Origin: Candidatus Omnitrophota bacterium
Lineage (GTDB): Bacteria; Omnitrophota; Omnitrophia; Omnitrophales; Aquincolibacteriaceae
Direction: 5' to 3'
DNA length: 64,000 nucleotides
NCBI GenBank assembly: GCA_035352955.1
Contig: DAOPYQ010000004.1
Coordinates: 99,903 to 163,902 of the forward strand
Below are positions 10,366-44,202 of the stretch, in pieces. The notes beneath the pieces were generated by a model. That model had not been told where the DNA came from and made no database searches. It saw only the letters and a list, made by a program, of their open reading frames with translations. The position numbers were made by a program, and so were the translations under genes. The number at the start of each line of letters is the position of its first letter. Position 1 is the first letter of the stretch.

Positions 10366-10374
10366 AAGCGGGGT

Positions 10375-12885
10375 TTATTCCAGAACGAGCTCGTAAAGAA
10401 GCTCTTTGGCTTTCTTGCGACGAATTTTGTCGCTTAATGTTTCCCCCTGTATCGGATCGAACTTCACCGCGGGCGCGGCAAGCGGTCCGGAAAGAAGAAC
10501 GGAAATCGGACCAAAATGGGCCTTGGTTTCCTTGTTAAAAGCGGAAGCCATCTTGGGGAAAAGACGTGCCGCAAGAGCCGTCGACAAATAGACTTCGCTC
10601 CGGAAATTGGCAAGCCCCTCAAGATCAAGCGTCCCTTCGGCATCCATCACATAATCTTTCTGCTTCACAAGAAGATCCTCTGTGAAAATCTTGCCTCCGG
10701 AAAGCTTCCAGTGAAAATCCATCGCGTCAAAATCCCTGATGGAAGGCACAACCTCGCCAATGGCCGAAAAAGGCTCCATCGTCGCAAGCGTATCTTTGAG
10801 ATCAAAAGTCTGGAATTTCCCGTTCACGAGTGAAAAACTCCCCTCCCCGCCAAGGGACTTACCCCAAGCCTCTTTCCCCCACCCGCGGCCTTCAAGAAAG
10901 CCCTGAAGAGTTAAATTGCCATCGAGAACCTTTGTATTCGTATCTTTCCTACCGGTATAGAGCCCGAGATCAAGCCCCTTGACCTCCCCGTCGCAACGGT
11001 ACTGGGGTTCTTTGTCCGCAAAATCCATCATTCCCCGCAATGCGACCTGTCCCTGATAGGCCGTGAACACAAGCTCCGAAACATCCCACTTCTTGCCACG
11101 ATAGCGCACACTCGTCGAAAAATCCTTGAGTGCCTGATCCTGCGGAAACAAGACTTCGATTGAATTCGCCACCTGATCATAAAGATCGGGTGCCGCACCT
11201 GCTTCCGGAGCTTTGGAACGGCACAATCCTACAACCGCCTGCCAGGCCTCACGAGGTTTCAACTCAAGGGAAACAACCCTTACCTCAGTCTGCCGATCCT
11301 CGGCTCCCCCCCAGATCTTGAGATCCGCGACGACGGAAGAATTCCCAATATCAAATTTCATCTGACGGCCCTCAAGCATCATGGGGCTATAGTCAAAAGC
11401 CAGAGTGGCATTATGAATACCTTTTCCGTCGGAAACCACCAGAGAACCTTTTTCGATAGTGACGTTGAAAATATGTTCGGCCTTCTCCAGTTTCCGAAGA
11501 TCCCCTTTCCAGTTCGCAAGAAGCTTTGCGTCCCCCTGAATCTTGTACTGCTGCAACGCCGGAATATATTGCTCCCATCCGTTCATAGAAAATTTATTCG
11601 TAAGTAAATTCAATTGTCCGTTCCCGGTCGCGAGATCCAAATCCTTAAGGTTGCCTTTCAAACTCATCTTTTCGAACTTAACCGCAAAGTCCCCTGAAAG
11701 CGTGGCTCCTTTTTGCACCAAATAATCAAAAGAAACGTTCAGCGGAATATCTTTCGGCTTTAAAAAATACTGACCGTACGTCAAAAGCACTTTAGTGAGG
11801 TCCCAGTCAAGATGGATCGACAGGTGATCTAGCGTTCCGTCCGCAGAAACCACCCACTTGCTCGGACCTGAAAACCCAATATGGAACGGAATGGCCTTCT
11901 CAATGGCAGGGCAATATTTCAGCAGGTCTTCAAGCACCATATCTGAGACCGCAAAATGGATCCCGGAAATCTCCCCCGTCCCGAGTTTCACAGCGCCGTT
12001 CGCCTCAATGTTTCCAATCGGGCTTTTAACCTTCATTTTGTGGACCTTCAATTCTTCTGTATCGTGGTTCCAAGCTCCGGTCATGTTCCACTCCGCGTCA
12101 AACGAAGGCGGTGCAGTCCATGTCTTATCCTGGAGCACTTCGTAGGCCAATCCTTTCCCGCTTCCCTCGGCACTCAACTCTACAAAGGGTTCCCGGATCT
12201 TTTTCGTGATCTCGAGGGTCGTGCGGATCTCTCCATCCTTAAAAAAAACAGAGCGCCTCGGATCATAGCTCGGCTCCCGAGAGACATGATGAAGAACGAT
12301 ATCTTTGAGTTCGACCGCAAGATGGCCGCTGGTCTTTTCCCAGCTCCATTTCTTGAGAGAATCCACCATGAGATGGCCCTTTACCACGAGAGCGTCCGGT
12401 TTCCCTCCGACACCGCTTGTAAATTGCAACGGGATAGGGATATTGGGGCGAACCGCGCCCATCTTCAGAGAGAAATTCTCGAGTTTTACAGAACCCGTAC
12501 CCCCGATCACGGAACCCGGCAACGGCAAAAGAGAAAGCGGAATCTCCGACATCCCCCCGAGGGCATAAACGGCGGAGGGCTCGACGCGACCGATCAAGAG
12601 CGGAAGGATATTGACGTCAAAGCGGAACCTGTCCGCCTCGATCACAAGAGGACTTCCCGGAAAAGTAAGTTTCGCCTGCTCGAGGACAACCCGGGGTTGG
12701 GGAAAATAACCCACTTGAAATTTCTGGCAACTTAACGTTCCTTCGGTAATAGCTTGAACTCTCTGGACAAGCACTTCCTGGACTTTCTGGGAAGGAAGCA
12801 GGCGATTGGCCTGGAACCATAGCGCCGCCAACGACACCGCCGCGAGGGAAACGACAATAAGCAGGATTTGATGGCGTTTTTTCAT
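10375..12885 (-). CDS. AsmA-family envelope protein (N-terminal TM anchor, large periplasmic domain)
   Basis: 836 aa, a single N-terminal TM helix (ILLIVVSLAAVSLAALWF) and a composition and length typical of AsmA/DUF3971-like proteins. No catalytic motifs recognised. Confidence 0.45.
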   Translation of the reverse strand: MKKRHQILLIVVSLAAVSLAALWFQANRLLPSQKVQEVLVQRVQAITEGTLSCQKFQVGYFPQPRVVLEQAKLTFPGSPLVIEADRFRFDVNILPLLIGRVEPSAVYALGGMSEIPLSLLPLPGSVIGGTGSVKLENFSLKMGAVRPNIPIPLQFTSGVGGKPDALVVKGHLMVDSLKKWSWEKTSGHLAVELKDIVLHHVSREPSYDPRRSVFFKDGEIRTTLEITKKIREPFVELSAEGSGKGLAYEVLQDKTWTAPPSFDAEWNMTGAWNHDTEELKVHKMKVKSPIGNIEANGAVKLGTGEISGIHFAVSDMVLEDLLKYCPAIEKAIPFHIGFSGPSKWVVSADGTLDHLSIHLDWDLTKVLLTYGQYFLKPKDIPLNVSFDYLVQKGATLSGDFAVKFEKMSLKGNLKDLDLATGNGQLNLLTNKFSMNGWEQYIPALQQYKIQGDAKLLANWKGDLRKLEKAEHIFNVTIEKGSLVVSDGKGIHNATLAFDYSPMMLEGRQMKFDIGNSSVVADLKIWGGAEDRQTEVRVVSLELKPREAWQAVVGLCRSKAPEAGAAPDLYDQVANSIEVLFPQDQALKDFSTSVRYRGKKWDVSELVFTAYQGQVALRGMMDFADKEPQYRCDGEVKGLDLGLYTGRKDTNTKVLDGNLTLQGFLEGRGWGKEAWGKSLGGEGSFSLVNGKFQTFDLKDTLATMEPFSAIGEVVPSIRDFDAMDFHWKLSGGKIFTEDLLVKQKDYVMDAEGTLDLEGLANFRSEVYLSTALAARLFPKMASAFNKETKAHFGPISVLLSGPLAAPAVKFDPIQGETLSDKIRRKKAKELLYELVLE

Positions 12886-14169: not shown

Positions 14170-16671
14170 TCATGCCGTATAAGCCTCCCACTTTTTGGTC
14201 ACGGGATCATAGCTCTTCAAAACCGTAGAGCGCCCGACCCTGACCGAATAGATCTCTTTCAGACCAGTTTCGGTGATCACGTAATAGAGGCCGCTCCGGA
14301 TACTCCCCTGGTTCTGGGAAGTGGGTTTTTCGGAAACATTACCTGTCCAAAGATCCATGACACGGACCTGATTTCCGCTGATCACCTGGTACGCCAAAGT
14401 CGAAATCGACGGCACAGCGGTCCATCCGGTCGGTACCGGCCGAGGTACGGCCTTCAAAGAGGTCATGTCCACCCAGACCTGCTTACCGTCTGTTTTCGTG
14501 ATCACCGCAAGATTCCCGTCAAACGAGACATCCTTGAGTTTTCCGGAAATTATTAATTTCTTAGCGGAATTGGCGATCTTCTGGATATAAACAGTGGAGG
14601 AAACTCCATAGACCACCGTCGACCCATCAGGGGAAACATCATAATCCTGAGCCAGTACTTCGTTGCCCCGTACGACAGTGACCGTCTGAACCTTCCCCGT
14701 CGTAAGATCCATCAAGGAAAGGGTCTTCATGGTCGGGTTTCCCGTCAGGCGGAACGCAAAGTTCTCGTTGCTTGTCGCGCGCGTCCAATCGGCCGGAACC
14801 GGAGGAGGAACCACCTTTAACGTGTTAAGGGCTACCCACGTCGAAACACCGCTTGTTAAAGTCAGTTTCACAACCTGACCGTTATTTTCGAAACTGATAC
14901 CGCTCAAGACTCCGTCCAGATAAAAAACATTCTGGTTGGTCGTATCCGCCAGAAGTTTCACGGCGGTTTTTGAAACGCCTGCCGACGTGTAGCTAAAAAT
15001 AACCGCCGTCCCGTCGGGAGACACATCATAAATCGTCGGGATGGTGGTCGATCCGGCCACTCCCGCAATCAGCAGTTGCTCCTTGCCGGTATTGAGATCA
15101 AGCAGGTAAAGACTTGTGGCATTGCTCCCGTTAATTTTTTCCGAACGCACCTGAAATGCAAAACGCGCGTTCGATGTCGCGCGCGTCCAACCGGTGGGCA
15201 CCATGGGGATCGCGTTCTGGAGATACTCCTGTTCGGTAATGCTCACATAGAACCCGACCGGATAGCTGTACCTCATGTTGTAGAGCTGATAGATCTCCTT
15301 CGTACCGGTAGCGCCCGTCCGCCTCCAGTGCAAAAAGATCATGTCCTGGGAGGCCCGCACGGTTTCAACCAGAGAATCACCGTTCGCAGGGCTGATTTCG
15401 GAAACCTTGCTCCAGTATCCTTCGAGGAACAGATAGTAAGCGTCGGACGACTGATACACGCCGTACCCCGCACCGTTAAAAACATTTTTCAGTTCAGAAA
15501 ATGAACCGATATCGACGTAAACCGTACGGGTATTCCACGACGGATTCACAGACACCGTATTCTCCAGATTAAGCGTCAATACTTTGGAAACACGGTTATA
15601 CCCTGTGGAAGTCACGTAACCTTGCAATGTGATCTTTCCGGCCGACGTCCCCATCTTCTGCACATAAGTCGTGCTGCCATAAGGAGGCTGCGTGGTCCCG
15701 TAGATCACAGCGCTCCCGTCCGCAAGTACGTCATAGTTCGAATCAATATGCGCGGGATAAGGCACGCTTCCATCCACGCGAATAAGTTCGGTCTCCGCCC
15801 CGGTCAAAAGATCTTTGACCTTTAAAACCGCCATCGAACCACTCCCCGAAACTTGAAATGCATAATAAGCATTGCTGACCGCGCGCGTCCAACCTGCTGG
15901 GACCTTGATATATCCCGTGGCAAGTTCGATCTCGTAAGTTTTTGTCTGCCCATTTTGAGTGACCGTTACTTGCGCCGTATCCGAAGCGGCGAACTGAACA
16001 TTTCCGAGCGTTCCCTGAAGAATCGCGCGCCCGTCGGCCACCACCTCCCAGCCGTTCCCCAAACCAACCGAAGAACTATACACATTCCGGCTACAAAACA
16101 CGTGGGCTCCGTCCGGCGAAACATAGACCATCGACCCTACCGAGCTAACTCCGGTAAATTCACCGTAAACCACCAAATCCGTTTCGGCGCCGCTCCGCAG
16201 ATCCATTAAATAGAGCGTGTAATTAAACCTTCCGAGACGCGGTTCTCCCGAAACCCGGGTTTGAAAAGCAAAGTTTGCGTTCCCCTCCGTGCGTGTCCAA
16301 CCGCTCGGGACCGCAGGAACACTGGCTGTCGTCGCATTTGCCGTTTGCGCGTTAGCTTGCGAAGCAGCGGCCTTGGTGTTCTCCTGAGACTTCCCTTGTC
16401 CCAAAGAAAGCGGGCTCGGGTTTTGGATAGCGGAGCCCGATGGAACTTCGGGCGATACCGCTGTCTGTTTGGCATTTGCCTGCGCCAACGTCACGGTGGC
16501 TGCCGGCCGGTTGGTGTCATCGGTGATCAGGACCATATCCGCCAAAGAAACAGGCGCAGGGATCCCGCTAAAAACAAAAAGAACGGTTACAAAACTTGCG
16601 ACCGTTCTATACATTGCCCCATTTTTTTTAAAGAGTTTCATTTCTTTTTTTGCACCGTTTTTTGCGTTCAT
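14170..16671 (-). CDS. secreted tandem-repeat protein (5 repeats of ~90-230 aa, PD40-like SPDG motifs); function unknown
   Basis: The 833-aa ORF has an N-terminal signal peptide (MYRTVASFVTVLFVFSGIPAPVSLA) and an Ala/Gln/Thr/Ser-rich linker. Five repeats start at aa 121, 257, 491, 625 and 746 (nt 16311, 15903, 15201, 14799, 14436). Each opens with VP(S/A/T)GWTR(A/T)xSNAxFAFQ and contains (L/M)xL(M/L)DLxTG and (Y)DVSPDG(S/T)xV(V/I)(F/Y). A GAGAGGTG SD is upstream, with an AT-rich promoter region at 16672-16836. Confidence 0.7.
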   Translation of the reverse strand: MNAKNGAKKEMKLFKKNGAMYRTVASFVTVLFVFSGIPAPVSLADMVLITDDTNRPAATVTLAQANAKQTAVSPEVPSGSAIQNPSPLSLGQGKSQENTKAAASQANAQTANATTASVPAVPSGWTRTEGNANFAFQTRVSGEPRLGRFNYTLYLMDLRSGAETDLVVYGEFTGVSSVGSMVYVSPDGAHVFCSRNVYSSSVGLGNGWEVVADGRAILQGTLGNVQFAASDTAQVTVTQNGQTKTYEIELATGYIKVPAGWTRAVSNAYYAFQVSGSGSMAVLKVKDLLTGAETELIRVDGSVPYPAHIDSNYDVLADGSAVIYGTTQPPYGSTTYVQKMGTSAGKITLQGYVTSTGYNRVSKVLTLNLENTVSVNPSWNTRTVYVDIGSFSELKNVFNGAGYGVYQSSDAYYLFLEGYWSKVSEISPANGDSLVETVRASQDMIFLHWRRTGATGTKEIYQLYNMRYSYPVGFYVSITEQEYLQNAIPMVPTGWTRATSNARFAFQVRSEKINGSNATSLYLLDLNTGKEQLLIAGVAGSTTIPTIYDVSPDGTAVIFSYTSAGVSKTAVKLLADTTNQNVFYLDGVLSGISFENNGQVVKLTLTSGVSTWVALNTLKVVPPPVPADWTRATSNENFAFRLTGNPTMKTLSLMDLTTGKVQTVTVVRGNEVLAQDYDVSPDGSTVVYGVSSTVYIQKIANSAKKLIISGKLKDVSFDGNLAVITKTDGKQVWVDMTSLKAVPRPVPTGWTAVPSISTLAYQVISGNQVRVMDLWTGNVSEKPTSQNQGSIRSGLYYVITETGLKEIYSVRVGRSTVLKSYDPVTKKWEAYTA

Positions 16672-27938: not shown

Positions 27939-28044
27939 ATTTCCCTCCGCGTTTCAAGTTGCATTTCGCAAATATCCCATCTCCAACCTTACAACAGCCT
28001 GCCAGCTCACGCGATAAACATGGCCGCACCGTAGACGGCTATCA

Positions 28045-28108
28045 CTAAAAAGTCACGGTGCGATACTTATCCATTGGGGATAAGTGCATCGCCGCCCTAA
28101 AGGGCGGC
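28045..28108 (-). terminator. tandem hairpins downstream of queA (probable terminator)
   Basis: GCCGCCC-TAAA-GGGCGGC (28091-28108) and GCGATACTTATCC-ATTGG-GGATAAGTGCATCGC (28060-28092). A TTTTT run follows on the minus strand. Confidence 0.45.
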
Positions 28109-28116
28109 TTGCCAAC

Positions 28117-29280
28117 TTACGCAATAAACATTGCATCGCCATAACTCGCGAAACGGTAATCTTCTCTCAGGGCGGTATTGTACGCATTCATCATCTTGTC
28201 GTAATCTAAAAAAGCGGCGACCATGACAAGGAGCGTGCTCTTCGGCATATGAAAGTTGGTGATCAAAGCATCGACGATCTTAAATTCATAAGGCGGATGA
28301 ATAAAGATCGAGGTGTTTGCCCTGCCCGAAACGACCCCCCTCTGTGACCGGGGCTCGATAAGATTGGCCGCGGATTCGAGGGCGCGGACGCAAGTCGTGC
28401 CACAGACCACGACACGCCGGCCTTCGCGCTTGGCTTTATTGATCCGCGCCGCGGCATCTTCCGTGATCTCGTATTCTTCCTCGAACATTTTGTGCCGCTC
28501 GATCTCCTCGACCGCGATCGGCTGAAAAGTGCCGTAACTCACATGGAGCGTCACGGGAACAATTTCGACGCCCTTCCGGCGGATCTTCTCCAACAGCGCG
28601 TCGTCAAAATGAAGCCCCGCCGTCGGCGACGCCACAGCGCCTTCCTTTTCCGCAAAAACCGTCTGATACATGCTCCGGTCAAGCTCAATGTCATCACGAT
28701 CAATATACGGCGGAAGCGGAATATGCCCGAGTTTTTTGATCTTATCTTTCACGTCCGCGCCTTCAAAACGAATCCTGCGTTTCCCGGAATGCGGCTCGGC
28801 AGATGCGATCACTGTACCAACAAGCGAGATCGCTTCGTCACCACCCCCACTCCTCGCATGGACCGGCGACCGGCTTCCCTCCTTCTGAGCGACGCGAAGG
28901 ATCCCCCCCTGAGATCCTTCGTCAGGCCGTGGGTCTTCCTCAGGATGACGGATAAAAGTAATCCGCTCGCCGTCTTTGATCCGGCCGCCGGGTTTGAGCA
29001 ACGTCTCCCAAACGTTCGCGCCGACTTCCTTCAGCAAAAGCGCCTCGACCTTTCCGCCCGTCACCTTTTTCCCGAAAAGCCTCGCCGGAAGAACTTTGGT
29101 ATTGTTCAGAACGAGCAGGTCCGTGGGGTTCAGAAGACCCGGCAGATCGGAAAAGACACGGTGCGAGCAGACACCGCTCACCTTGTCGATGCACAAAAGT
29201 TTCGCGCCGGTACGTTGCTCGTCCGGGAACAGCGCGATCTTTTCTTTCGGCAAGGGATAATCAAAATCGGAGAGTTTCAT
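28117..29280 (-). CDS. queA: S-adenosylmethionine:tRNA ribosyltransferase-isomerase
   Basis: QueA N-terminus MKLSDFDYPLPKEKIA and C-terminal FASYGDAMFIA. At 387 aa it is ~30 aa longer than typical QueA, with an internal insertion. Confidence 0.9.
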   Translation of the reverse strand: MKLSDFDYPLPKEKIALFPDEQRTGAKLLCIDKVSGVCSHRVFSDLPGLLNPTDLLVLNNTKVLPARLFGKKVTGGKVEALLLKEVGANVWETLLKPGGRIKDGERITFIRHPEEDPRPDEGSQGGILRVAQKEGSRSPVHARSGGGDEAISLVGTVIASAEPHSGKRRIRFEGADVKDKIKKLGHIPLPPYIDRDDIELDRSMYQTVFAEKEGAVASPTAGLHFDDALLEKIRRKGVEIVPVTLHVSYGTFQPIAVEEIERHKMFEEEYEITEDAAARINKAKREGRRVVVCGTTCVRALESAANLIEPRSQRGVVSGRANTSIFIHPPYEFKIVDALITNFHMPKSTLLVMVAAFLDYDKMMNAYNTALREDYRFASYGDAMFIA

Positions 29281-29322
29281 AAGGTTCAGGAAATAGGGTT
29301 TAACAGATCGTTTTCCGAAGCT

Positions 29323-29928
29323 CTAGCTCCTGTGCCCTGTCAATATTTTCAGAGCTTCGGAAAGAGTGGATGCTAAATAAAAATTTTCGGGGATCTTAAG
29401 CGAGGGGTCTTTCTTCAAGAATTTCACCAGGTTCCGCAGCCGCTTCCCGAGGAGGATGACAGGCTTTGCGTGAAGTTTCTTGTTCGCCATTTCCCAGACA
29501 AAAAGAAGCTCCGTAAGCGTCCCCGTCGCACCGTCGAGAAAAACGTAGGCGTCACTCATCTTGATCAGTTTGAGAAGGCGTCTCTCCCAGGACGGCATCG
29601 CGATCTCGGCATCCACCCAGCGATTCCGGGGACTGGCTCTTTTTTGAAGAAGGACAGGAACCCCGCCTCGCGCGGGAGAGCTCGTCAAACCGAAGGTGCC
29701 TGTCCCCTTTTTTTGAATCGTGATCCCGGTGTTGTGCCCGCCGCCCAAGCGGCACCCTCTCGCAACCCCTTCCATCACCCCGCCGTACCCCCCATGGCAA
29801 ACATTGAACCCGGCTTGGGCAAGATGCAATCCAAGCTGCACGGATTGCTTATAAACGGGGCTGTTTTCCGCAACGGTACCGCTTCCGAGCACAGCGACCC
29901 AGCGGATCCTAGATTTTCGGGGATTCAA
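29323..29928 (-). CDS. LOG/TIGR00730-family Rossmann-fold protein (cytokinin riboside 5'-monophosphate phosphoribohydrolase-like)
   Basis: Motifs HGGYGGVMEGVARG and LDGATGTLTEL resemble the LOG-family GGGxGxMe / PGGxGTxeEl motifs. There is an internal ~45-aa insertion. Confidence 0.55.
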   Translation of the reverse strand: MNPRKSRIRWVAVLGSGTVAENSPVYKQSVQLGLHLAQAGFNVCHGGYGGVMEGVARGCRLGGGHNTGITIQKKGTGTFGLTSSPARGGVPVLLQKRASPRNRWVDAEIAMPSWERRLLKLIKMSDAYVFLDGATGTLTELLFVWEMANKKLHAKPVILLGKRLRNLVKFLKKDPSLKIPENFYLASTLSEALKILTGHRS

Positions 29929-30604
29929 CCTTCTCGCCTTTCAGGATCTCGGGAATAGGCTTGGCGTCGATCACGATTCCACCGGCATGTTCAATGCGAA
30001 GGGTGTAGATCGTGCCGGGAAGAAACATGGACCCGGGCGCTTCGATCTGGGCATGTTTGATGCCGGCCCGCTCGCGCTTTTGAGGATCCAGCGCATAGTT
30101 CCAGAAATCCGTCCAGAGTTTTTGTTGGAACTCATCCTGCTCCCGGTTCCCTTCGACCCGATAACCTCCGGGGACCTCCCCCGCCTTATTGATCACGCAT
30201 TCCTGGGTCTTCGCACCGTCGAGGACGAACGCCTTCATAAAAAGATAGGCACTTTTCCCGCGCAAACGGTCTCCCGCCGCCACAAACTTGTCAGCGAACC
30301 GGATCACAAGCGACTGAAACTGGATGAGATTGCCTTCGAACGTGAAATACTTCGGTTCAAGCGGTTTCCCCTTGGCATCATATTCGAGGAATTTGATCGT
30401 GGTCTTGATCTTTTTCGTCGCCTCGTCGAACTCGCTTTTGGTCACGAGCACTTCGGCCACGCGCGTCTCGGCAGTAAGCCGGTCGATGATCCTGCGGAGC
30501 ATCCGTTCTTTTCCGATCCACTGATTCACCCCGAGGCTGCCCAAGACCAGCGCAATGCCGACCAAAATGCCGACGATCAGATTGAAGATCTTTGAATTTT
30601 TCAT
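29909..30604 (-). CDS. membrane-anchored hypothetical protein
   Basis: ATG at 30604 (MKNSKIFNLIVGILVGIALVLG) gives an N-terminal TM anchor and ~200 aa of extracytoplasmic domain. No motif hits. Confidence 0.45.
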   Translation of the reverse strand: MKNSKIFNLIVGILVGIALVLGSLGVNQWIGKERMLRRIIDRLTAETRVAEVLVTKSEFDEATKKIKTTIKFLEYDAKGKPLEPKYFTFEGNLIQFQSLVIRFADKFVAAGDRLRGKSAYLFMKAFVLDGAKTQECVINKAGEVPGGYRVEGNREQDEFQQKLWTDFWNYALDPQKRERAGIKHAQIEAPGSMFLPGTIYTLRIEHAGGIVIDAKPIPEILKGEKVESPKI

Positions 30605-30664
30605 GGGAGCATATCCCTCAAAGGGTTCCGGAAACCCCATGGAATTGACGGCTGCGCTAAAGGG

Positions 30665-30738
30665 TGCGCCCGGGCAGGGTCGAACTGCCAACCTTCGCCT
30701 TCGGAGGGCGACACTCTATCCAATTGAGCTACGGGCGC
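30665..30738 (-). tRNA. tRNA-Arg (anticodon CCG)
   Basis: Manual cloverleaf: GCGCCCG-TA-GCTC-AATTGGATA-GAGT-G-TCGCC-CTCCGAA-GGCGA-AGGTT-GGCAG-TTCGACC-CTGCC-CGGGCGC-A. 74 nt, with a CCG anticodon in a 7-nt loop. Confidence 0.85.
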
Positions 30739-30859
30739 AAATCTCAATAATTTTTCTTTTGATAAAAGCTTATTTGCGCCAGCACTTTAGCGCGGGCGCA
30801 AATCTCAGTAATTGTTCTTTTGATAAAAGCTCATTTGCGTCCGCACCATGGTGCGGACG
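30732..30859. repeat. tandem ~64-bp direct duplication of the tRNA-Arg 5' flank, including the first 7 nt of the tRNA
   Basis: CGGGCGCAAATCTCA(-/G)TAATT(T/G)TTCTTTTGATAAAAGCT(T/C)ATTTGCG… occurs at 30732 and at 30796. The second copy ends in the palindrome GTCCGCACCATGGTGCGGAC. Confidence 0.6.
30820..30858 (-). terminator. candidate terminator after the distal pilin gene
   Basis: Perfect palindrome GTCCGCAC-CATG-GTGCGGAC (30839-30858), followed on the minus strand by GCAAATGAGCTTTTATC. Confidence 0.35.
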
Positions 30860-30978
30860 CTTTCCTTCGGCAAAAACCACAACGGCCTGTTACGGCGGGA
30901 AAGTATACCAGATTTTTTAAAACCAGTCTTGAAGGACTTTAGAAAGGCCCGCCCAAACGAGCCGAAGGAGTACGAAAT

Positions 30979-31398
30979 TTAACAGGCAACACCCGTACCC
31001 GGCGCGTAGGGATCATCTCCGGTCCACGTGCCATTCTGATCCAAACAAATACTGACATGGTGAGCGCCATCCAAGCGTTGAGCCTTTGCAATAAACCCGA
31101 CGGGCGAGGCCGTTGCCCCAACCCACCAAAACGTGTAAGTGTCCGACACGACATCAACGCCCAATACTGATTTTATTTCTGCCTGATGGCAATCATCCGC
31201 AATCGGGCAGGCATAAGCGCCGCTATGGCTTGCGAAATAAACTTTCTGAGCGGCCCGAATACGTTTGAGAGCATCGATAGCCTGTTTCGCAGCTGTCTTT
31301 TCAAGGATCTTCGTATAACTGGGGACCGCGATCGCGGCAAGGATCCCCACAACGATCACCACCATCAAAAGCTCAGCCAGAGTAAATCCTCTTTTCAT
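30979..31398 (-). CDS. type IV pilin (prepilin-type N-terminal methylation domain)
   Basis: N-terminal MKRGFTLAELLMVVIVVGILAAIAVP, a class III signal with G-1/F+1/E+5, and a C-terminal Cys pair. Confidence 0.85.
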   Translation of the reverse strand: MKRGFTLAELLMVVIVVGILAAIAVPSYTKILEKTAAKQAIDALKRIRAAQKVYFASHSGAYACPIADDCHQAEIKSVLGVDVVSDTYTFWWVGATASPVGFIAKAQRLDGAHHVSICLDQNGTWTGDDPYAPGTGVAC

Positions 31399-31509
31399 CC
31401 AGATCTTCCTCTTTATTATTGGACCCGGCGCCGGAGCACGCGCCCTGACCGGCGACCCGCATCAAGCGGGAGAACCGTCATCAAAATACCGTTCCAAACA
31501 GGTCCGAAC

Positions 31510-31926
31510 CTAACAGGGAGCGCCCGCCGCCGGCTTAAAAGCGTCAGTCCCGCCCCAAACACAGGCATCCGTGAGCGTAATCGTATTACCACTGCCGTCT
31601 TTCCGGGTCGCCGTCGCGGTAAACGTGGTCGCCGGATTCCCTGCCACGACGTTAAAGGTGTAATTCTCTGCCGTAATCTCGAGATTGAGCACGTTTTTTA
31701 TCTCCTGGGGAGTTGCGCACGACGTTCCCGCGGCGCAAGCATAAACGCCGCCATTGTTCGAAGCGTAGATCTTCTGGGCGCTCCGGATGAGTTGGAGATA
31801 AGCAATGGCCTGCTTGGCCTTTCCTTTTTCGACCGACTTTGAAAAGTTAGGCAAAGCCATCGCCGCCAGAATTCCCGCGACGACGATCACCATCAAAAGT
31901 TCGGCCAACGTAAAACCTTTTTTCAT
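31510..31926 (-). CDS. type IV pilin, paralog of 30979-31398
   Basis: N-terminal MKKGFTLAELLMVIVVAGILAAMALP. Its first ~60 aa are ~60% identical to the neighbouring pilin. Confidence 0.85.
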   Translation of the reverse strand: MKKGFTLAELLMVIVVAGILAAMALPNFSKSVEKGKAKQAIAYLQLIRSAQKIYASNNGGVYACAAGTSCATPQEIKNVLNLEITAENYTFNVVAGNPATTFTATATRKDGSGNTITLTDACVWGGTDAFKPAAGAPC

Positions 31927-31971
31927 AAAAGCCTTCCCTCTCCCCGTGAACCGGCGGCCGAACGCGACCGC

Positions 31972-32325
31972 TTAATTGGCGGTGACTTCGATATCGATCT
32001 TGTACAACCCGTTGAACGCGCCGCTCGTCTGTTTGACCATCGTAATGGTGTTGGGCACTCCATAAAATTCCGGGAAATTGGTCAGATCGTTGGAAGGAAC
32101 CGCGAGTTGCGCGGTATTACAGGCCCCACCCAGCCTCTTGCAGTCCGCAATCGCGTACTGCATCGCCGCTTCGGCAAGATAAGCCGCCCGGATCTCCTGC
32201 TGGCCGGAATATTTTAGGGAAGAATAACTCATAATGAGCGGGAGCAACGCCGCAGTCACGAGTCCGATAAGGATCGTCACCACAAGCACGGTCACGAGCG
32301 CAAAACCTTTTGTTGTTTTCTTCAT
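31972..32325 (-). CDS. PilX-like minor pilin/pseudopilin
   Basis: 117 aa with N-terminal KGFALVTVLVVTILIGLVTAALL (PilX_N-like). Confidence 0.55.
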   Translation of the reverse strand: MKKTTKGFALVTVLVVTILIGLVTAALLPLIMSYSSLKYSGQQEIRAAYLAEAAMQYAIADCKRLGGACNTAQLAVPSNDLTNFPEFYGVPNTITMVKQTSGAFNGLYKIDIEVTAN

Positions 32326-32870
32326 TGAGAGCTCCTTTGGCGCGCGACCACCGTCGTTTCAATGACCTCGCTTGGACCGCCTTTCACTCCTTCTTCATTT
32401 CGTGCTCGCGCCGTCAACTTGATCGTCACAATGTTCGGCACGCCCGGATGAAGGGTAAAAACAAGGCTTTGAAGATCCGTTGCTACTGTGCGCTGTTCCT
32501 GCGTTCCGTCACTCAATCTTGTTTTCGTACATATCAGATACTTCGAGGTCATATCAACGAATTGATAATTATAGGCCGTATCGTCCGCGGGATCAGAAAA
32601 GGTCGGCGTCGCATTTTCATCGACAAACGCTACGAGGTTGGTCGGATTAACGGTAATTCTGTTCGCAATGGCAACCCTGTGAACGATCTCCTCAACCGCG
32701 CCGTAGACGGTATTGGCAAGCGATGCCTCGTCCTTTGTAAAATTAAAAAACGCCCGGTTGTAATGAAGCAAAAGCGCAGTCGCGGTAAAACCGACTACCG
32801 CAAGAAGCGTGGTCGCAACGATCAGCTCGAAAAGTCCCAGCCCGCTCTCGTTTATTTTTAGTCGTTCCAT
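32322..32870 (-). CDS. PilW-like minor pilin (prepilin-type cleavage motif)
   Basis: 182 aa. N-terminal GLGLFELIVATTLLAVVGF has a class III signal-like G/LFELIV motif. Confidence 0.55.
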   Translation of the reverse strand: MERLKINESGLGLFELIVATTLLAVVGFTATALLLHYNRAFFNFTKDEASLANTVYGAVEEIVHRVAIANRITVNPTNLVAFVDENATPTFSDPADDTAYNYQFVDMTSKYLICTKTRLSDGTQEQRTVATDLQSLVFTLHPGVPNIVTIKLTARARNEEGVKGGPSEVIETTVVARQRSSQ

Positions 32871-33297
32871 GTGACCGTCGCCGTCACTTTCTTGTAAGCC
32901 ACGCCGCCGTTCCCGTCAGCAACGTCCCAAACTTTATATTTTCTTGCGCCGCCCTTCGCCAAAAGGGGAACTCCGGCGGGCAAATCTGTTAGCGCTGTGT
33001 TGGTGTATTCCGTCCCGCTGCCGCAGGGCATGCCGAAAGCTTTTCCCGAGCAGGACGCCGTTGAGTCCACGAGCGGAGCCCCCGTCTGCCCTGCCGCAGT
33101 TTGGGCGCTGACGGCATTCCTAAGATTTTCGAGGACTCCGCGAGCGTAGTGCGTGGCCTGAAGATCAAAGCTCCCGCTGGGGCTCCGGCGCTTGTCCCCG
33201 CTCATCAGTGAGGTCATCGAAGTGATCCCCAACGCGAGAATGGCCAAAAGGACGAAACTGACCATTACCTCCAGCAACGACATTCCTCTGCGATCCA
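32858..33297 (-). CDS. PilV-like minor pilin
   Basis: ATG at 33297 gives MDRRGMSLLEVMVSFVLLAILALGI, a prepilin N-terminus. The longer ORF to 33415 is rejected. Confidence 0.6.
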
Positions 33298-33458
33298 TGG
33301 CGCTCCCTTCCTTTCCACTCCTCACAAAAAAAAACGCTTGAGTTATGATAGCACCGGCAACGAAAAGGTCAAATGGCGACAAATCCGTTCCGCGCAACCC
33401 CCGGCCCGTCTTCACCTTCCTCTTTTATCGGCCGTCACGGCGATTCCAAAAGCTTTCG

Positions 33459-34667
33459 TTATTCGGAAAATCCCTGGATCTTCGAGACCTGAGCGCCGGG
33501 ATAATAGTATCCGAGGATCTCCTGATAGCTATAACCGAGCTCTCCGAGATATTTCATCCCGTACTGGCAAAGCCCCACGCCGTGCCCCCACCCCCGTCCA
33601 CGAAACACAAAAACGCCGCCCGCCCCCGTCCCGATCCGCGTGATCAAATTGCTTTTCAGACGCATCGGATCGATCCAGACACGGAACGCATCCGCATCCA
33701 GATTCTTCTCCCACCAAGTGCTTTTAATGGTCAGGGTGTGCACACGGCCCGTTTTGTCGATCTTTCCGGTCTTGATGCTCAAAACCTCATTAACCGGCAT
33801 CCCGTGTTTCGCCAGTTTTTCCTTGATCTCCGCCGCCGTGACTTTCGCCTCCCACCGGTAATGCGGGGAATTCTCGCAAAACCGGCACTCGACGCCGCCT
33901 AACGCGGGGTTCGGCTTCACGGGCCAGACCAAATCCGCGGCCGTCGTCGCCCCTCCGCAGGTCGAATGGAAGTAAGCCGGAAAAATTTTCCCGTTGGAGG
34001 TCAGGACCTGCCCCTTCGTGGCCTCGATCGCTTCGGTCGTTTTTTCGTTCTCGATGCGTTTCCCCGCATAGACCTGACTGTTCATGCCGGAGGAAACATC
34101 ATATTCATCGCTCTGGCGTCCCAGCATTTTAAAAAGAGCGAAAGTCCTCGACACCACCGCCTGAGCCTTGAGCGATTCGGCGGACCATTTTGGATTTCCT
34201 TCGAACGGCAGCACCCCTTTCAAATAGTCCTCGAGTTCCGCTTTATTGATAAGATCCAGGCTGCCTTTTTCGTTCCGGTAGATCAAAACCATGTCCCGGA
34301 AAAGGCCGATACGGCTGACACGGACACCGCTCCCCGCGCTCTGGATCACGATAAATTTTCCCGGAACAGTCTTATCCCACCATCGGATCCCTCCGAGGGC
34401 CGGCTTCACGGTCACGCCCGAAAGTTTTTCACCCCGGAAGATCGATCGCCCCTGATCGTCCCAAGCTTCAAACGGCCCCGCGCAACTGATCTGGATCTCG
34501 GATTTGTCCCGCGCGACAAGAATTCGGATCTTCCTGAACGGTTTCATATCCGCGGGCAACGAAAGCGCGCTTTCCTGGCGGTTTTCTCCGGCGCAGAGAA
34601 CTCCGGAAAGGAAGAAAAAGAAAAGACCGGTTACAAAGATCTTTCTGATCTGGATGTGGGTCGGCAT
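33459..34667 (-). CDS. SpoIID/LytB-domain protein (peptidoglycan lytic transglycosylase/amidase-enhancer family)
   Basis: Signal peptide; SpoIID motifs LEDYLKGVLPFEGNPKWSAESLKAQAVVSRTFAL and FHSTCGGATT. It is the first gene of the pilin cluster. Confidence 0.8.
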   Translation of the reverse strand: MPTHIQIRKIFVTGLFFFFLSGVLCAGENRQESALSLPADMKPFRKIRILVARDKSEIQISCAGPFEAWDDQGRSIFRGEKLSGVTVKPALGGIRWWDKTVPGKFIVIQSAGSGVRVSRIGLFRDMVLIYRNEKGSLDLINKAELEDYLKGVLPFEGNPKWSAESLKAQAVVSRTFALFKMLGRQSDEYDVSSGMNSQVYAGKRIENEKTTEAIEATKGQVLTSNGKIFPAYFHSTCGGATTAADLVWPVKPNPALGGVECRFCENSPHYRWEAKVTAAEIKEKLAKHGMPVNEVLSIKTGKIDKTGRVHTLTIKSTWWEKNLDADAFRVWIDPMRLKSNLITRIGTGAGGVFVFRGRGWGHGVGLCQYGMKYLGELGYSYQEILGYYYPGAQVSKIQGFSE

Positions 34668-34703
34668 AGGAGGTGTATTGTAGCAAGGAAGCGCGGCGGG
34701 AGC

Positions 34704-34746
34704 TAAAAATAAAAAACCGGTTGGGCCCTCAAGGAACCCAACCGGT
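34704..34746 (-). terminator. rho-independent terminator after the PG-binding lipoprotein gene
   Basis: 10-bp perfect stem ACCGGTTGGG/CCCAACCGGT, followed on the minus strand by TTTTTTATTTTT. Confidence 0.65.
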
Positions 34747-34767
34747 CTTTAAAATTCTGAAGCGGTC

Positions 34768-35262
34768 TTATTTGATGGAATCGAGATAAGACTTCAGCTT
34801 CGCCCAGGTCTTACGGCCGCAAACGCCGTCAGCCTTGAAGCCGTTGTCTTTCTGGAAAGCCCGGATCGCGTCACGGGTCGCGGGACCGATCTTGCCGTCC
34901 AGCTTGCCGTCGTAGTAACCGGCCTTCTTGAGGGCCTTCTGAATGTTCACGGAAGGAAGCTCAAAACCGGAAGGCGTGCGATAGATACCTTTGATCACGC
35001 CCTCTTCTTCCTGCAGCGCACCGATCTGTGACTCGGTCGCACCTAATTCACCTTGGAGCTGGCCTTTTTTGGCTTCTTCGGCCTGGAGAGCAGCGCGGGT
35101 ATCCTGGAGCGACTGATCCAAACGCACGAGCTCATCGGTCACCACGCCCATTTGCGCCTGAAGCGTATCCACCTTGCGCGAAGTTTTTCTAGACGCGCAA
35201 CCACTCAACGCGATCACGCCGATCATAAGGAACACCACTGTCAAACGAGCTGCTTTTCCCAT
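34768..35262 (-). CDS. lipoprotein with coiled-coil and C-terminal peptidoglycan-binding (PG_binding_1) domain
   Basis: Lipobox LSGCAS, a heptad-rich middle region, and a C-terminal YDGKLDGKIGPATRDAIRAFQKDNGFKADGVCGRKTW resembling PF01471. Confidence 0.65.
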   Translation of the reverse strand: MGKAARLTVVFLMIGVIALSGCASRKTSRKVDTLQAQMGVVTDELVRLDQSLQDTRAALQAEEAKKGQLQGELGATESQIGALQEEEGVIKGIYRTPSGFELPSVNIQKALKKAGYYDGKLDGKIGPATRDAIRAFQKDNGFKADGVCGRKTWAKLKSYLDSIK

Positions 35263-35321
35263 ATTTTTTCTCCTGTTTAAAGTCTTTTGAAGGTGAAAAA
35301 TAAAAGCTTTTGTACAACGGG

Positions 35322-36164
35322 CTAAAGTGTACCAGAAGGGGTCTCCGGAATCAACGGTAAATCTTGCGCGGGCTCGTCCGCGGGACGCACTGCGAACAGC
35401 ATGAATTCCGTGTGCCCGATCATTCTCTGGACTGGACGTGTCTTACCTCCGCGCGCGAGGATCTCTCGCTCTAAAAGTTCGCGGCTTTCCACAAGAATGA
35501 ATCCCTGGGCTCTTAATTCCTCGGCCATCTTTTCGATCTGATTGAACGTGGGGTTGAGACTGACGAGGCGGCCGCCGCCTTTGAGCGCGGCCTTCACCAC
35601 CGAAACCTCTTCCCACGGCTGCGGAATATCCAGAATGACCGCATCAAAACCGGTTTCCGCAAAAGACTCCGTCGCCTGCCGCTGGCAGAATGTCACATGC
35701 GGCCGCAGACCCGCGCGGTCGATGTTCTTGTAGGCGTTCTTCGGAAGATCTTCGCGCCGGTCATAAGTGAACACATGCCCGTCCGGCGCGACGGCTTGCG
35801 CGAGCGCCATCGTCAGGGACCCTGAACCCGTACCGATCTCCATGACCTTGGACCCGCTATGAATGCCGGCCTTCATGATCAACAGCGCTGCGTCCTTCGG
35901 GTAAATGATCCCGCTTTCGCGCGAAGCCTTCATCATGAGATCTTCCATCGTCGGTTTCAAAAGATAGCCGAAGCCGTGCTCGCACACGACCTTTTTGCCG
36001 AACGGCTGGCCGATCCAGCTTTCGACATCCAGCGGCTTGCCGCAGTGGATGGAGGCGCGTTTCCCCCGCGCAACTTCGATCATATAAGTGCGTTCGTCAT
36101 CGAACCAAAGAAGGACAAGGTCCCCTTCTTTGATCCCGCCTGTTATTTCCATTGGATTTCCCAT
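35322..36164 (-). CDS. trmI: tRNA (adenine-N1)-methyltransferase (TrmI/Gcd14 family)
   Basis: SAM-binding motif VMEIGTGSGSLT and overall Gcd14 architecture. An AGGGAA SD is upstream. Confidence 0.8.
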   Translation of the reverse strand: MGNPMEITGGIKEGDLVLLWFDDERTYMIEVARGKRASIHCGKPLDVESWIGQPFGKKVVCEHGFGYLLKPTMEDLMMKASRESGIIYPKDAALLIMKAGIHSGSKVMEIGTGSGSLTMALAQAVAPDGHVFTYDRREDLPKNAYKNIDRAGLRPHVTFCQRQATESFAETGFDAVILDIPQPWEEVSVVKAALKGGGRLVSLNPTFNQIEKMAEELRAQGFILVESRELLEREILARGGKTRPVQRMIGHTEFMLFAVRPADEPAQDLPLIPETPSGTL

Positions 36165-36233
36165 GTCTTTATTCCCTGAAACTGCTCCGTGAATTTCGAT
36201 CGGGACAGGTACGATAGCCTTTCCCAGAATAAT

Positions 36234-36884
36234 TTACCACCCTTTTTCTTTCGCGAGCCGGAGTAACTCGGAAAAATCACGGACGATATGATCCGGTTTG
36301 GCTTCGCGCAGAACCGCTTCACTCGCGAAACCGTGGGACAACGTTACCACCTCCACCCCGCCGTTCCGTGCCGCTTCAATATCGATCGGGCTGTCGCCTA
36401 CAAACAGGACCTCGCCGGCTTCCGACCCCGTCGTTTCCATCAGGTGATGGATCGCGGCCGGATCCGGCTTGAACGGCAAGCCGTTGTCGCCCGCCAGAAT
36501 GGCAATAAAATGATCCGCGACGCCAAGCGACGCGAGGATCTGCGAAGAAAAGGGATTGGGCTTGTTCGTGATCACCGCCTGCTGACGGTCTTTGAAATAT
36601 TCCAGAAATTCGCGCGCGCCCGGGTAAAGGGACGAATGATCAAGCATGTGTTCCTTATAGTGGGCCCGGTAGAGCTTTGCGCCCTTGTCCGCGAGAACGT
36701 CATCCTGGGTGCGAAACACCTGTTTGATCAAGGAATGCAGTCCGGTCCCCACGCAATCCTTGATCTCGTCATCGGTAAGCTCCGGTCCGCTCAATGCTTT
36801 GAGCGCATACCGCACGCTGTTGATGATATCGCGGCGCGTATCGACGAGTGTCCCGTCTAGATCGTACAAAATAAGTTTTTTCAT
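36234..36884 (-). CDS. HAD-family phosphatase (phosphoglycolate phosphatase-like)
   Basis: HAD motif I LYDLDGTLVDT and motif IV GDSPIDIEAARNGG. Confidence 0.75.
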   Translation of the reverse strand: MKKLILYDLDGTLVDTRRDIINSVRYALKALSGPELTDDEIKDCVGTGLHSLIKQVFRTQDDVLADKGAKLYRAHYKEHMLDHSSLYPGAREFLEYFKDRQQAVITNKPNPFSSQILASLGVADHFIAILAGDNGLPFKPDPAAIHHLMETTGSEAGEVLFVGDSPIDIEAARNGGVEVVTLSHGFASEAVLREAKPDHIVRDFSELLRLAKEKGW

Positions 36885-37834
36885 ATGATTTTTGATGGAG
36901 TTCCAGTCGCGGGGATCTTGTCTTCCGTTAAAATGCGTCCGAAAACGTCGGGCATGGCGCTGGTGAAAACCACGGGTTCACCGGTCACGGGATGCATCAG
37001 GGCAAGATGAAATGCGTGAAGCGCGAGGCGTCCGGCCGGATTCGTCTTCGCGCCGTAACGGTCGTCTCCCGCGATCGGATGGCCCATGTCGGAAAGATGG
37101 ACGCGGATCTGGTGTTTGCGCCCGGTCTCAAGCTCCACTTCCAGAAGCGAATAGTGCGCACTTGAACGGAGGACCCTGTAGTGCGTGGTCGAACGTTTGG
37201 CGCCAGCTTCTTCCTTTTTCGTGCTGTAAACTTTCAAAAATTTGTTCTCGCGCAGAAAACTCGTGAGCGTCCCCGCCGGTTTCTGGGGGATCCCTTCCAC
37301 GACTGCATAATATTTTTTCCGGACCTCGGTCCACCCGGACTGAAGCCGCGTCTTGATCTCGAGGTCCTTTGCAAAGATGAGAAGCCCCGACGCTTCCCGG
37401 TCGAGCCGGTGAACGATAAAGATCTTTTTTCTCCGGACCAGTTTTTCGCCCGGCCGGCACGGTCGCCCGGAATTCGCGGCATCCGTTTTGCACACATGTT
37501 CGTTCGCGGCATAAAAAGCAGTCTGCGTCCCAACGCTCTCGGTCGAAACGGTCAAGAGCCCGGAGGGTTTTTCGATCACGAGGATCGCGTCATCCTCATA
37601 CACAATCGTGATGCCGAACTTCGGACGTGCTTCGGGCCGCGCCTCTTTAAGCGAAAGGATCCCGACCTGGTCTCCCGGCACAAGTGGGTGATCGAACTGC
37701 GTGACAATCGCGCCGTTCACTAAGACCGTCCGGAATTTCAGGAGTTGCCGCACGCGCGTCTTCGACGTGTCGGAAAGTTCCTTAAAAAGATATTCCAGAA
37801 GCTTCCCGCCCGACCGGACCTCAAAAGTTCTCAT
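36881..37834 (-). CDS. RluA-family pseudouridine synthase with N-terminal S4 domain (RluC/RluD type)
   Basis: ATG at 37834 (MRTFEV…). It has an S4-like N-terminus and the catalytic motif HRLDREASGLLIFAK. The 95-codon upstream extension of the ORF lacks homology and is rejected. Confidence 0.8.
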   Translation of the reverse strand: MRTFEVRSGGKLLEYLFKELSDTSKTRVRQLLKFRTVLVNGAIVTQFDHPLVPGDQVGILSLKEARPEARPKFGITIVYEDDAILVIEKPSGLLTVSTESVGTQTAFYAANEHVCKTDAANSGRPCRPGEKLVRRKKIFIVHRLDREASGLLIFAKDLEIKTRLQSGWTEVRKKYYAVVEGIPQKPAGTLTSFLRENKFLKVYSTKKEEAGAKRSTTHYRVLRSSAHYSLLEVELETGRKHQIRVHLSDMGHPIAGDDRYGAKTNPAGRLALHAFHLALMHPVTGEPVVFTSAMPDVFGRILTEDKIPATGTPSKII

Positions 37835-42828: not shown

Positions 42829-42934
42829 AAATTGCTAGTTCTTGATTTCTTTTGATTTCATCTATTTTTTAAGAATTACACATCTAAAAATGCATTATAC
42901 AAAAAAAGCCTGGCGCTATGGCAAAAATGAAATT

Positions 42935-43393
42935 ATGCGTTATACTTTTGCCGTGGAAAATGAAAAGCGCGAATTTTTCAGGCACCCCATCAAGGTACCG
43001 ATCCAGCTGACGAAAGTCGCCGATGAAAGTTCCGCCGCCCTGAAGACCGAGGACCTGTCCCAAGGCGGTCTTTCTTTTTTCTGGCCGGAAAATCTCCCGG
43101 AAGGAATGCACCTTCAACTTTCGATCCCGGTGGAGAAACAGCTTTTCAAGATGAGCGCGCATGTGGCCTACTGCAGAAAAGACACGGGCACCGGGCTTTT
43201 CAAAACGGGGGTCTGTTTTGAGGACGCCGCGAGCGCTTTCCGCGCAAAACTCGCCGAAGAGATCATCCAGATCCGTCAGTACTGCGAAAAGATGTCACTC
43301 CTCCGCGGCCGCTCGATCTCCGAACAGGAGGCCGCCGAAATGTGGATCGATAAGAACGCCCGGAATTTCGCAGGCCGGATGGGAGCGAATTAG
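42935..43393 (+). CDS. PilZ-domain c-di-GMP binding protein
   Basis: PilZ motifs RxxxR (REFFRHPIKVP) and D.S.GG (DLSQGGLSF). Start chosen at ATG 42935; the ORF opens at 42842. Confidence 0.65.
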   Translation: MRYTFAVENEKREFFRHPIKVPIQLTKVADESSAALKTEDLSQGGLSFFWPENLPEGMHLQLSIPVEKQLFKMSAHVAYCRKDTGTGLFKTGVCFEDAASAFRAKLAEEIIQIRQYCEKMSLLRGRSISEQEAAEMWIDKNARNFAGRMGAN

Positions 43394-43455: not shown

Positions 43456-44202
43456 TTAGGAATGAGGAGTTTCCAGAGAGAAGATCAGTTCCCTGGAAGG
43501 TCTTGCGAGGTAGAATCCCTGTCCATAGCGGATCCCCATATTGCGGAGAAGATCAAGATCCTCTTTGTTCTCAACCCCTTCCGCCACCATTTCGGAACCA
43601 TTCATCCGACCGAGGTGGACCATCTCACGGACGATCTGCTGATTAAGCGGATTGTTAGCGATCCCGTGAATGAGCTGAAGGTCGATCTTGAAGAACTCCG
43701 GCTTCAAAGAAGCTAACTGCGTGATCTTGGAACCGATCTCTGCGATATCGTCGAGCGCAAAACGGTAGCCGAGAGAACGAATGAATTCGACACCCTTTTC
43801 GATAAATTCAAAATCTGATTTCTTGACGCCTTCCGTCAGCTCAAAAACCATCTTGTCCGAATGGACCCTCATGTTCCGGAGGAACTCTTCCCCCGCCTGA
43901 CCTCTCGAAAAAGCCTTTTCCAGCGTCAACGGTTCGATATTCAGGAACAGACATTGCCCCTTCGCGAGCTTCGGCAGGACCTTGATCGCGGCGTCAAGAC
44001 AGTGAATGTCAAAAGGAATGACCGTCCCTTTGGCGTAGGCGTTGCGGAACATCTCAACCGGAGTTTCTTTTTCGCTCCGAGCCAGCGCCTCATAAGCGAT
44101 CACATCCCAGGTCGCAATGTCGACGATGGGCTGATAGACCGAGTAAATATTTTCCTTGAACTCGGCGCGCTGTTTTTTAAAAAGATTGATCCTGAATTCC
44201 AT
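43456..44202 (-). CDS. standalone EAL-domain c-di-GMP phosphodiesterase
   Basis: 248 aa with the EAL signature YQPIVD…YEALAR and DDxxxG-type metal-binding residues (FALDDIAEIG, EGVE). Confidence 0.85.
   Translation of the reverse strand: MEFRINLFKKQRAEFKENIYSVYQPIVDIATWDVIAYEALARSEKETPVEMFRNAYAKGTVIPFDIHCLDAAIKVLPKLAKGQCLFLNIEPLTLEKAFSRGQAGEEFLRNMRVHSDKMVFELTEGVKKSDFEFIEKGVEFIRSLGYRFALDDIAEIGSKITQLASLKPEFFKIDLQLIHGIANNPLNQQIVREMVHLGRMNGSEMVAEGVENKEDLDLLRNMGIRYGQGFYLARPSRELIFSLETPHS

Follow-up and report, generated by a model that had tools for sequence, protein, structure and literature searches.

We analysed a 64,000-nucleotide stretch of DNA, referred to here as the window, from a Candidatus Omnitrophota bacterium (contig DAOPYQ010000004.1 of GenBank assembly GCA_035352955.1), and focused on a cluster of six co-directional minus-strand genes at 30979-34667. 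An earlier reading of the letters alone, hereafter the original prediction, had described this cluster as a pilin island in which a peptidoglycan-remodelling enzyme of the SpoIID type might serve the filament. In the order of transcription, the cluster consists of a gene for a SpoIID/LytB-domain protein, three genes for V-, W- and X-like prepilins and two genes for the paralogous pilins A and B. Our results indicate that the five genes at 30979-33298 probably make up a self-contained pilin operon within the type IV filament superfamily, to which the SpoIID gene does not belong. The V-, W- and X-like genes together with the two pilins are best read as a type IVa-like class of pilin tip complex plus pilin, and the proximity of the SpoIID gene, judged from gene order, is an accident of position.

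The pilin genes and their products

The layout of the cluster proved to be as originally described, with all six genes on the minus strand, the SpoIID/LytB gene first, and the predicted coordinates correct (Table 1). The overlapping stops and starts that had been reported for the three minor-pilin-like genes measure 13 nt between the V- and W-like genes and 4 nt between the W- and X-like genes. These are followed by gaps of 45 nt before pilin A and 111 nt between pilins A and B; the latter spacer contains small hairpins, in keeping with the hairpin that had been predicted there, and the two products are close to the predicted length of about 138 aa. A gap of 160 nt separates the SpoIID gene from the first pilin gene, and within this gap lies a sigma-70-like promoter match. 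The V-like open reading frame spans 32858-33415; its start was assigned to the ATG at 33298, which is preceded by a GGAAAGGAAGGGAG ribosome-binding site and was also chosen by two gene callers. The clustering of prepilin genes exceeds what is expected by chance, with four matches to the prepilin pattern in 2.4 kb here against six in 1.16 Mb at 80 other loci.

The class III signal motif, comprising a short basic leader ending in Gly, a hydrophobic residue at +1, Glu at +5 and then a stretch of about 20 hydrophobic residues, is present in the V-like and W-like proteins and in both pilins. The X-like protein has G↓FALVT without Glu at +5, resembling subunits of the GspK/PilX type. Three of the five products score above the Pfam N_methyl cut-off of 21.2 bits (V-like, 27.9; pilin A, 25.8; pilin B, 23.2), the W-like protein falls below it (E = 0.066), and the Pfam search with the X-like protein gave no match. 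The classes of the W-like and X-like proteins are assigned because of their signal motifs, their position in the operon and their conservation within the cassette.

Pilins A and B are 45% identical overall, with 57% identity in the N-terminal half, close to the predicted value of about 60%, and 35% in the C-terminal half. Each carries four cysteines, at 64, 70, about 120 and the C-terminus, so that the C-terminal cysteine pair that had been noted is present in both; the pairs 64/70 and ~120/C-terminus are predicted to form disulfides. Their leaders of 4 aa and mature lengths of 134 and 135 aa lie within the size range of type IVa major pilins (leader below 10 aa, chain of about 130-160 aa). 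When the sequence of pilin A was compared with solved structures, the best match was Neisseria PilE (4.7e-7 over 85 residues), and Myxococcus PilA and the PAK pilin were also matched, whereas the match to GspG was weaker (2e-4 over 56 residues). Scores against all NCBIfam equivalog models fell far below their cut-offs.

The V-like protein is of the GspI/PilV fold class: like GspI, EpsI and XcpV, it combines an N-terminal helix with a small antiparallel sheet against which the helix packs. A phmmer search showed its family to be small, with 57 representatives among 1.84 billion proteins (E≤1e-3), and a profile of this family compared with PDB sequences matched N-terminal helices only. The protein scored 34.2 bits against TIGR02523 (PilV), for which the cut-off is 52.2, and 22 bits against XpsI, for which it is 150. 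For the W-like protein, a word-index search of 5.8 billion proteins matched only the protein itself, and a single-sequence AlphaFold model (pLDDT 48.6) was too poor for a fold search. Assignment of the gene set to the Verru_Chthon prepilin cassette was considered and rejected; matches to TIGR02596 were N-terminal only, with E of about 1e-3.

This type of cassette recurs on other metagenome contigs. On one of them (L091) the order is V149-W186-X95-pilin133-pilin128, where the numbers are lengths in residues, and the cassette lies beside divergent surA-like and lpxD genes, without SpoIID. The V-like protein of this contig is 52% identical to that of the window by phmmer and 49% by BLASTP, its W-like protein is 36% identical, and its X-like protein 49% over the N-terminal half. 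A contig from ENA carries V129-W195-X116-pilin131, again without SpoIID; in a partial copy of this contig (L089), identity to the window is 27% for the W-like protein, 36% for the X-like protein and 43% for the pilin. Cassettes thus end in one or two pilins. A close strain (L090) has an X-like protein with 88% and a pilin A with 86% identity to those of the window, but its second pilin shares only 53% identity with pilin B, which marks the terminal pilin as a fast-changing position. The proposal that tandem pilin paralogs imply diversification gains modest support from this difference between the second pilin (53%) and pilin A (86%).

Downstream of the L091 cassette (4429-8546 of that contig) are three proteins of 94, 73 and 347 aa with the N-terminal motif GEVELTTYYP(A/S)PxGEY, the longest of which carries Peptidase_S74, as well as a 596-aa protein with a Glug domain. 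These may be pilus-associated or surface proteins. The GEVELTTYYP(A/S)PxGEY motif is absent from the window.

Table 1. Features of the pilin cluster and its borders, in coordinates of the 64-kb window. Arrows mark the predicted cleavage position behind the leader Gly.
Feature	Position	Strand	Remarks
SpoIID/LytB-domain protein	33459-34667	-	402 aa; N-terminal signal or anchor sequence; TIGR02669
V-like minor pilin, GspI/PilV class	32858-33298	-	146 aa; leader MDRRG↓MSLLEV
W-like prepilin (GspJ/PilW position)	32322-32870	-	182 aa; leader MERLKINESG↓LGLFEL; motif from sequence
X-like prepilin-like protein (GspK/PilX position)	31972-32325	-	117 aa; KG↓FALVT; one Cys pair
Pilin A, type IVa-like	31510-31926	-	138 aa; leader MKKG↓FTLAEL; four Cys; N_methyl and ComP_DUS
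Pilin B, paralog of pilin A	30979-31398	-	139 aa; MK(K/R)G↓FTLAEL; GC3 0.52
tRNA-Arg(CCG)	30662-30739	-	single; ARAGORN and Rfam; anchors variable slot; also follows SpoIID in relatives
Tandem 61-nt direct repeat	30732-30792 and 30793-30853	-	85% identical
Perfect 10-bp palindromic hairpin, downstream of pilin B	30837-30860	-	GCGTCCGCAC-CATG-GTGCGGACGC; in distal 61-nt copy; resembles tRNA acceptor stem
Sigma-70-like promoter match	33345-33372	-	TTGACC-16 nt-TATCAT, extended TG; 10/12 positions; consensus match only
PG_binding_1 lipoprotein	34768-35262	-	PG_binding_1 8.5e-20
Intrinsic-terminator-like hairpin, after lipoprotein gene, just upstream of SpoIID	34712-34750	-	17-bp stem and T run

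The SpoIID/LytB gene and its surroundings in relatives

The interval between the SpoIID gene and tRNA-Arg(CCG), which we call the slot, was compared in two sets of loci. The close relatives comprise six contigs, reached through exact-protein look-ups, whose SpoIID proteins are 56-71% identical to that of the window. The distant set, which serves as a negative control and does not include close orthologs, comprises 80 SpoIID loci of ≤38% identity among the matches listed by a genome-contig profile scan. In the six relatives, the flanking gene order is kept wherever the contig reaches: AddA, HAD, TrmI, the PG_binding_1 lipoprotein, SpoIID, the slot, tRNA-Arg(CCG), a 230-aa membrane protein, LOG in some, QueA, Tgt, YajC and SecDF.

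The content of the slot itself varies. It is empty in L085 (P0006), L086 (P0045) and L095 (P0007); in L087 (P0092), tRNA-Arg directly follows SpoIID and the contig stops before any downstream gene. On the P0003 contig the slot holds a gene for a 377-aa GDSL-lipase-like protein, and in L088 (P0010) it is occupied by a pair of CLIPPER/DUF11 repeat genes (506 and 560 aa; 9478-12726), followed by a tRNA-Thr at the contig end. Among the loci compared, the window's own organism (L001-L004) is the only one with pilins in the slot, and no prepilin open reading frame was found within 3.5 kb downstream of SpoIID in the 80 distant loci, among the matches listed. The contents seen in relatives, CLIPPER/DUF11 and GDSL-lipase-like, are all of surface or secreted type.

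Since the slot lacks pilins in relatives and the cassette exists without SpoIID elsewhere, we conclude that the adjacency of the two is positional and not functional. The original prediction had itself named conservation of SpoIID without pilins in relatives as the pattern that would speak against a link between them, and this is the pattern that comparative genomics revealed.

The SpoIID protein belongs to TIGR02669 (8e-57; 193.2 bits, cut-off 83.3) and carries the Pfam SpoIID domain (1.8e-22), but does not reach the sporulation equivalog TIGR02870 (150.6 bits vs 234.75). Conservation of the catalytic Glu, which had been proposed as a check on this assignment, is confirmed: Glu156 (motif GVLPFEGNP) lines up with the Glu of the GVxxxEM motif in structures 4RWR and 5I1T and is invariant in 22 orthologs. 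The same protein is found at 100% identity in the Candidatus Omnitrophota metagenome-assembled genome GCA_035403665.1 and in JGI digester metagenomes, and orthologs of 56-71% identity are common in Omnitrophota.

Upstream of SpoIID, the lipoprotein gene, which had been described as independently terminated, is followed by a strong terminator-like hairpin with a 17-bp stem at 34750-34712. The pair of lipoprotein and SpoIID genes is kept in all close relatives. By phmmer, the lipoprotein and the 230-aa protein are found in close relatives only and in none of the 80 distant SpoIID loci, among the matches listed, and the lipoprotein-SpoIID pair is therefore clade-specific. SpoIID homologs function in the division of non-sporulating Chlamydiales, at the division septum (PMC6635528). 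The SpoIID protein of the window is probably a lytic transglycosylase for general cell-wall turnover or division, paired with the peptidoglycan-binding lipoprotein.

The tRNA-Arg side of the slot

The cluster had been described as bordered by a tRNA-Arg duplication. This is not the case, as both ARAGORN and Rfam report one tRNA-Arg(CCG) only; what is duplicated instead is a tandem 61-nt unit. Each unit consists of a 24-nt acceptor-stem-like hairpin and a 37-nt A/T-rich tRNA leader, and the proximal copy extends over the initial 8 nt of tRNA-Arg. An Rfam scan across 28000-37000 detected tRNA and nothing else. In appearance, the units suggest tRNA copies that have collapsed, or scars of recombination. 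Across 30732-30860, the hairpin arms resemble the two halves of the tRNA-Arg acceptor stem (GCGTCCG...CGGACGC and GCGCCCG...TGGCGC). The palindromic hairpin in the distal copy, downstream of pilin B, may act as the terminator of the minus-strand operon, although the scan lists it on the plus strand only.

These features raise the possibility that the cassette is the cargo of a mobile genomic island integrated at tRNA-Arg, an explanation that bears on the origin of the cassette and can hold alongside a self-contained pilin operon. The slot adjoins a tRNA, its content differs among relatives (empty, lipase, CLIPPER repeat genes or pilins), and the tandem 61-nt repeats combine tRNA 5' sequence with acceptor-stem-like hairpins. 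In addition, L095 (9314-9384), whose slot is empty, carries a 12-nt copy of the tRNA-Arg 5' end, GCGCCCGTAGCT, and the inverted complement of this copy some 140 nt ahead of the tRNA, and in L086 (9222-9297) the tRNA is inverted and directly follows SpoIID. GC content at third codon positions (GC3) is also lower in the W-like gene (0.54) and pilin B (0.52) than in their neighbours (0.64-0.70). However, several of the usual marks of a tRNA-integrated island are missing. No integrase, transposase or other mobility gene lies in the slot, the repeats are confined to the tRNA side with no matching repeat on the SpoIID side, and the overall GC content of the slot equals that of its flanks. Moreover, the duplication involves the tRNA 5' end, whereas the usual site of integration into tRNA genes is the 3' end. 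On balance, we consider an integrated island possible but somewhat doubtful.

We speculate, with similar reserve, that the gap between SpoIID and tRNA-Arg(CCG) is a recombination hotspot in this Omnitrophota family, at which cassettes for surface or secreted proteins are swapped. Its marks may be the partial tRNA 5' copies and the hairpins that mimic acceptor stems, no recognisable integrase being present. If this were true, the hotspot would be a site for surface variation in these possibly host-dependent nanobacteria.

Filament type, assembly and known systems

Assembly genes were not found near the operon. No T2SSE, T2SSF, secretin, PilM/N/O or A24 peptidase domain was detected by Pfam in the approximately 55 open reading frames across the window, nor among the precomputed Pfam domains of the 10-kb flanks on either side of the window; GspC, D, E, F, L and M are likewise absent from the window and these flanks. 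The claim that no assembly ATPase, platform, secretin or prepilin peptidase gene lies nearby thus stands for the 64-kb window and 10 kb on each side. Absence of pilB, pilC and pilD beside pilin or minor-pilin operons is not unusual. Most type IVa pilus components are reported to be encoded in the large majority of Omnitrophota genomes, in every class (PMC10066038), and with type IVa pili reported as near-universal in the phylum, distant machinery is therefore expected.

Besides the pilins, the Pfam content of the window is housekeeping: the arginine biosynthesis operon, rnc, an AsmA-family gene, rplM/rpsI, truA, asd, leuB, glgA and recJ. Further genes are secDF, yajC, tgt, queA, a LOG-family gene, trmI, a HAD hydrolase gene, addA, genes with PilZ and EAL domains, ruvABC, yebC, folP, ftsH, tilS, lptF/G and dsbD, and the precomputed annotation includes genes for RluA-type pseudouridine synthases. 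The PilZ (42842-43393, plus strand) and EAL (43456-44202, minus strand) genes stand back to back, adjoining addA; both were considered as members of the pilin module and rejected, as they are conserved in relatives without pilins. About 5 kb past the left window end (L093, 15984-17036) is a lone gene for a 350-aa ATP-synt_ab protein, beside an ABC-F-type gene. A survey of Omnitrophota described unusual F-type ATPases beside type IVa pilus gene clusters (PMC10066038); no such pilus cluster was seen near the L093 gene. Elsewhere in the window (14170-16671, minus strand), an 833-aa secreted-looking protein has about five internal repeats marked by P(A/T/S)GWTR...(Y/F)AFQ and no Pfam match at E≤1e-5.

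A second pilin pair, which the original prediction did not mention, lies unlinked to the cluster between tilS and ftsH (56971-57450 and 57499-57972, minus strand). Its products, of 159 and 157 aa, are 45% identical to each other, carry the leader ...KG↓FTLIEV and resemble the pilins of the main cluster in the N-terminal helix only. This pair likely represents other substrates of the same pilus machine. Beside it is an 81-aa open reading frame at 56705-56950.

GspI-J-K and PilV-W-X are precedents for tip complexes of prepilin-like subunits. By analogy, a prepilin peptidase would remove the leader of each precursor by cleavage behind its Gly, the V-, W- and X-like subunits would form a priming or tip complex, and the two pilins would be polymerised beneath this tip, or one of them would be incorporated at a low level. 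The peptidase, ATPase, platform and secretin would be encoded elsewhere in the genome.

In a rival reading, the five genes would encode pseudopilins of a split type II secretion system, namely GspI, GspJ and GspK with GspG/H-like subunits. We consider this improbable. All Gsp matches are far below the curated cut-offs and cover the N-terminal helix only, and pilin A matches type IVa major pilins better than GspG (4.7e-7 vs 2e-4), over a longer stretch. Both pilins have the C-terminal Cys pair typical of type IVa pilins, and pili are the better fit for two diverging major-type paralogs accompanied by another pilin pair in the window. The phylum survey, moreover, reports that type IVa pili are common, and the words 'type II secretion' do not occur in it (PMC10066038).

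The original prediction suggested that the SpoIID protein may be a dedicated cell-wall gate for filament passage; such an opening in the peptidoglycan would call for expression together with the pilins. Specialised lytic transglycosylases are associated with some other envelope-spanning machines. Here the genes point in the same direction, the 160-nt gap between them has no terminator-like hairpin on the coding strand, and the Glu of the catalytic motif is conserved. Nevertheless, SpoIID occurs with the same neighbours and without pilins in six relatives, no pilins accompany it in the 80 distant loci among the matches listed, and homologous cassettes in L091 and the ENA contig have no SpoIID. 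There is also a strong promoter-like site ahead of the first pilin gene, and the conserved partner of SpoIID in this clade is the upstream PG_binding_1 lipoprotein. We therefore give the gate very little credence. Equally little speaks for a competence pilus that takes up DNA and in which pilin A would be a ComP-like receptor for it, since the Pfam ComP_DUS match is marginal for pilin A (28.4 bits vs a cut-off of 27.3) and below the cut-off for pilin B, the weak matches to ComGC, ComGD and ComGE are N-terminal only and far below their cut-offs, and the window contains no com genes.

It should be noted that several observations weigh against a self-contained operon for a type IVa-like pilus. 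Cognate machinery was not found within the approximately 84 kb surveyed, and there is no terminator-like site on the coding strand between SpoIID and the first pilin gene, so that read-through co-transcription from SpoIID into the pilin genes is possible in this organism. The curated cut-offs of PilV (TIGR02523), GspG, GspH and PilA_Myxo are not reached by these genes. The choice of type IVa over type II draws on a weak sequence preference and the cysteine pattern, and the W-like and X-like proteins are classed mainly from motif and operon position.

Overall, reading the five genes as a pilin operon independent of SpoIID removes a tempting functional link between a wall enzyme and a pilus, which matters little beyond annotation. 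It also assigns a fast-evolving and poorly annotated gene set to the class of pilin tip complex plus pilin. Omnitrophota are thought to attach to hosts or prey with type IVa pili (PMC10066038), and a map of variable pilin loci could therefore aid work on host range.

The SpoIID protein may be likened to SpoIID/LytB proteins of non-sporulating bacteria such as Waddlia chondrophila, whose SpoIID acts at the division septum: the domain scores above its cut-off, the motif Glu is kept, and the host is here too a non-sporulating lineage of Gram-negative type. The protein of the window is conserved with a peptidoglycan-binding partner, and it differs from sporulation SpoIID in falling below the TIGR02870 equivalog cut-off. 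The V-, W- and X-like subunits recall the GspI-GspJ-GspK (XcpV-W-X) tip complex. Here, however, no gsp machinery is nearby, the Gsp models match the N-terminal helix only, the X-like protein has 117 aa against about 300 in GspK, and the pilins have type IVa-like Cys pairs.

The closest parallels are found in Pseudomonas aeruginosa, which is well known for minor-pilin islands that stand apart and for variable pilin loci beside tRNA genes (PMC4628258). Compared with P. aeruginosa, the cassette described here is without a PilY1-like adhesin and without a distinguishable FimU or PilE, its two major-type pilins share an operon with the minor pilins, its subunits are much smaller (182 aa for the W-like protein), and the curated PilV model is not reached. 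Like fimU-pilVWXY1E, on the other hand, it is a stand-alone prepilin operon with the order V-W-X and translational coupling, located away from the assembly genes. Like the pilA 'pilin island' beside tRNA-Thr (PMC4628258, citing Kus 2004 and Giltner 2010), it occupies a variable, tRNA-adjacent locus with fast-diverging pilins.

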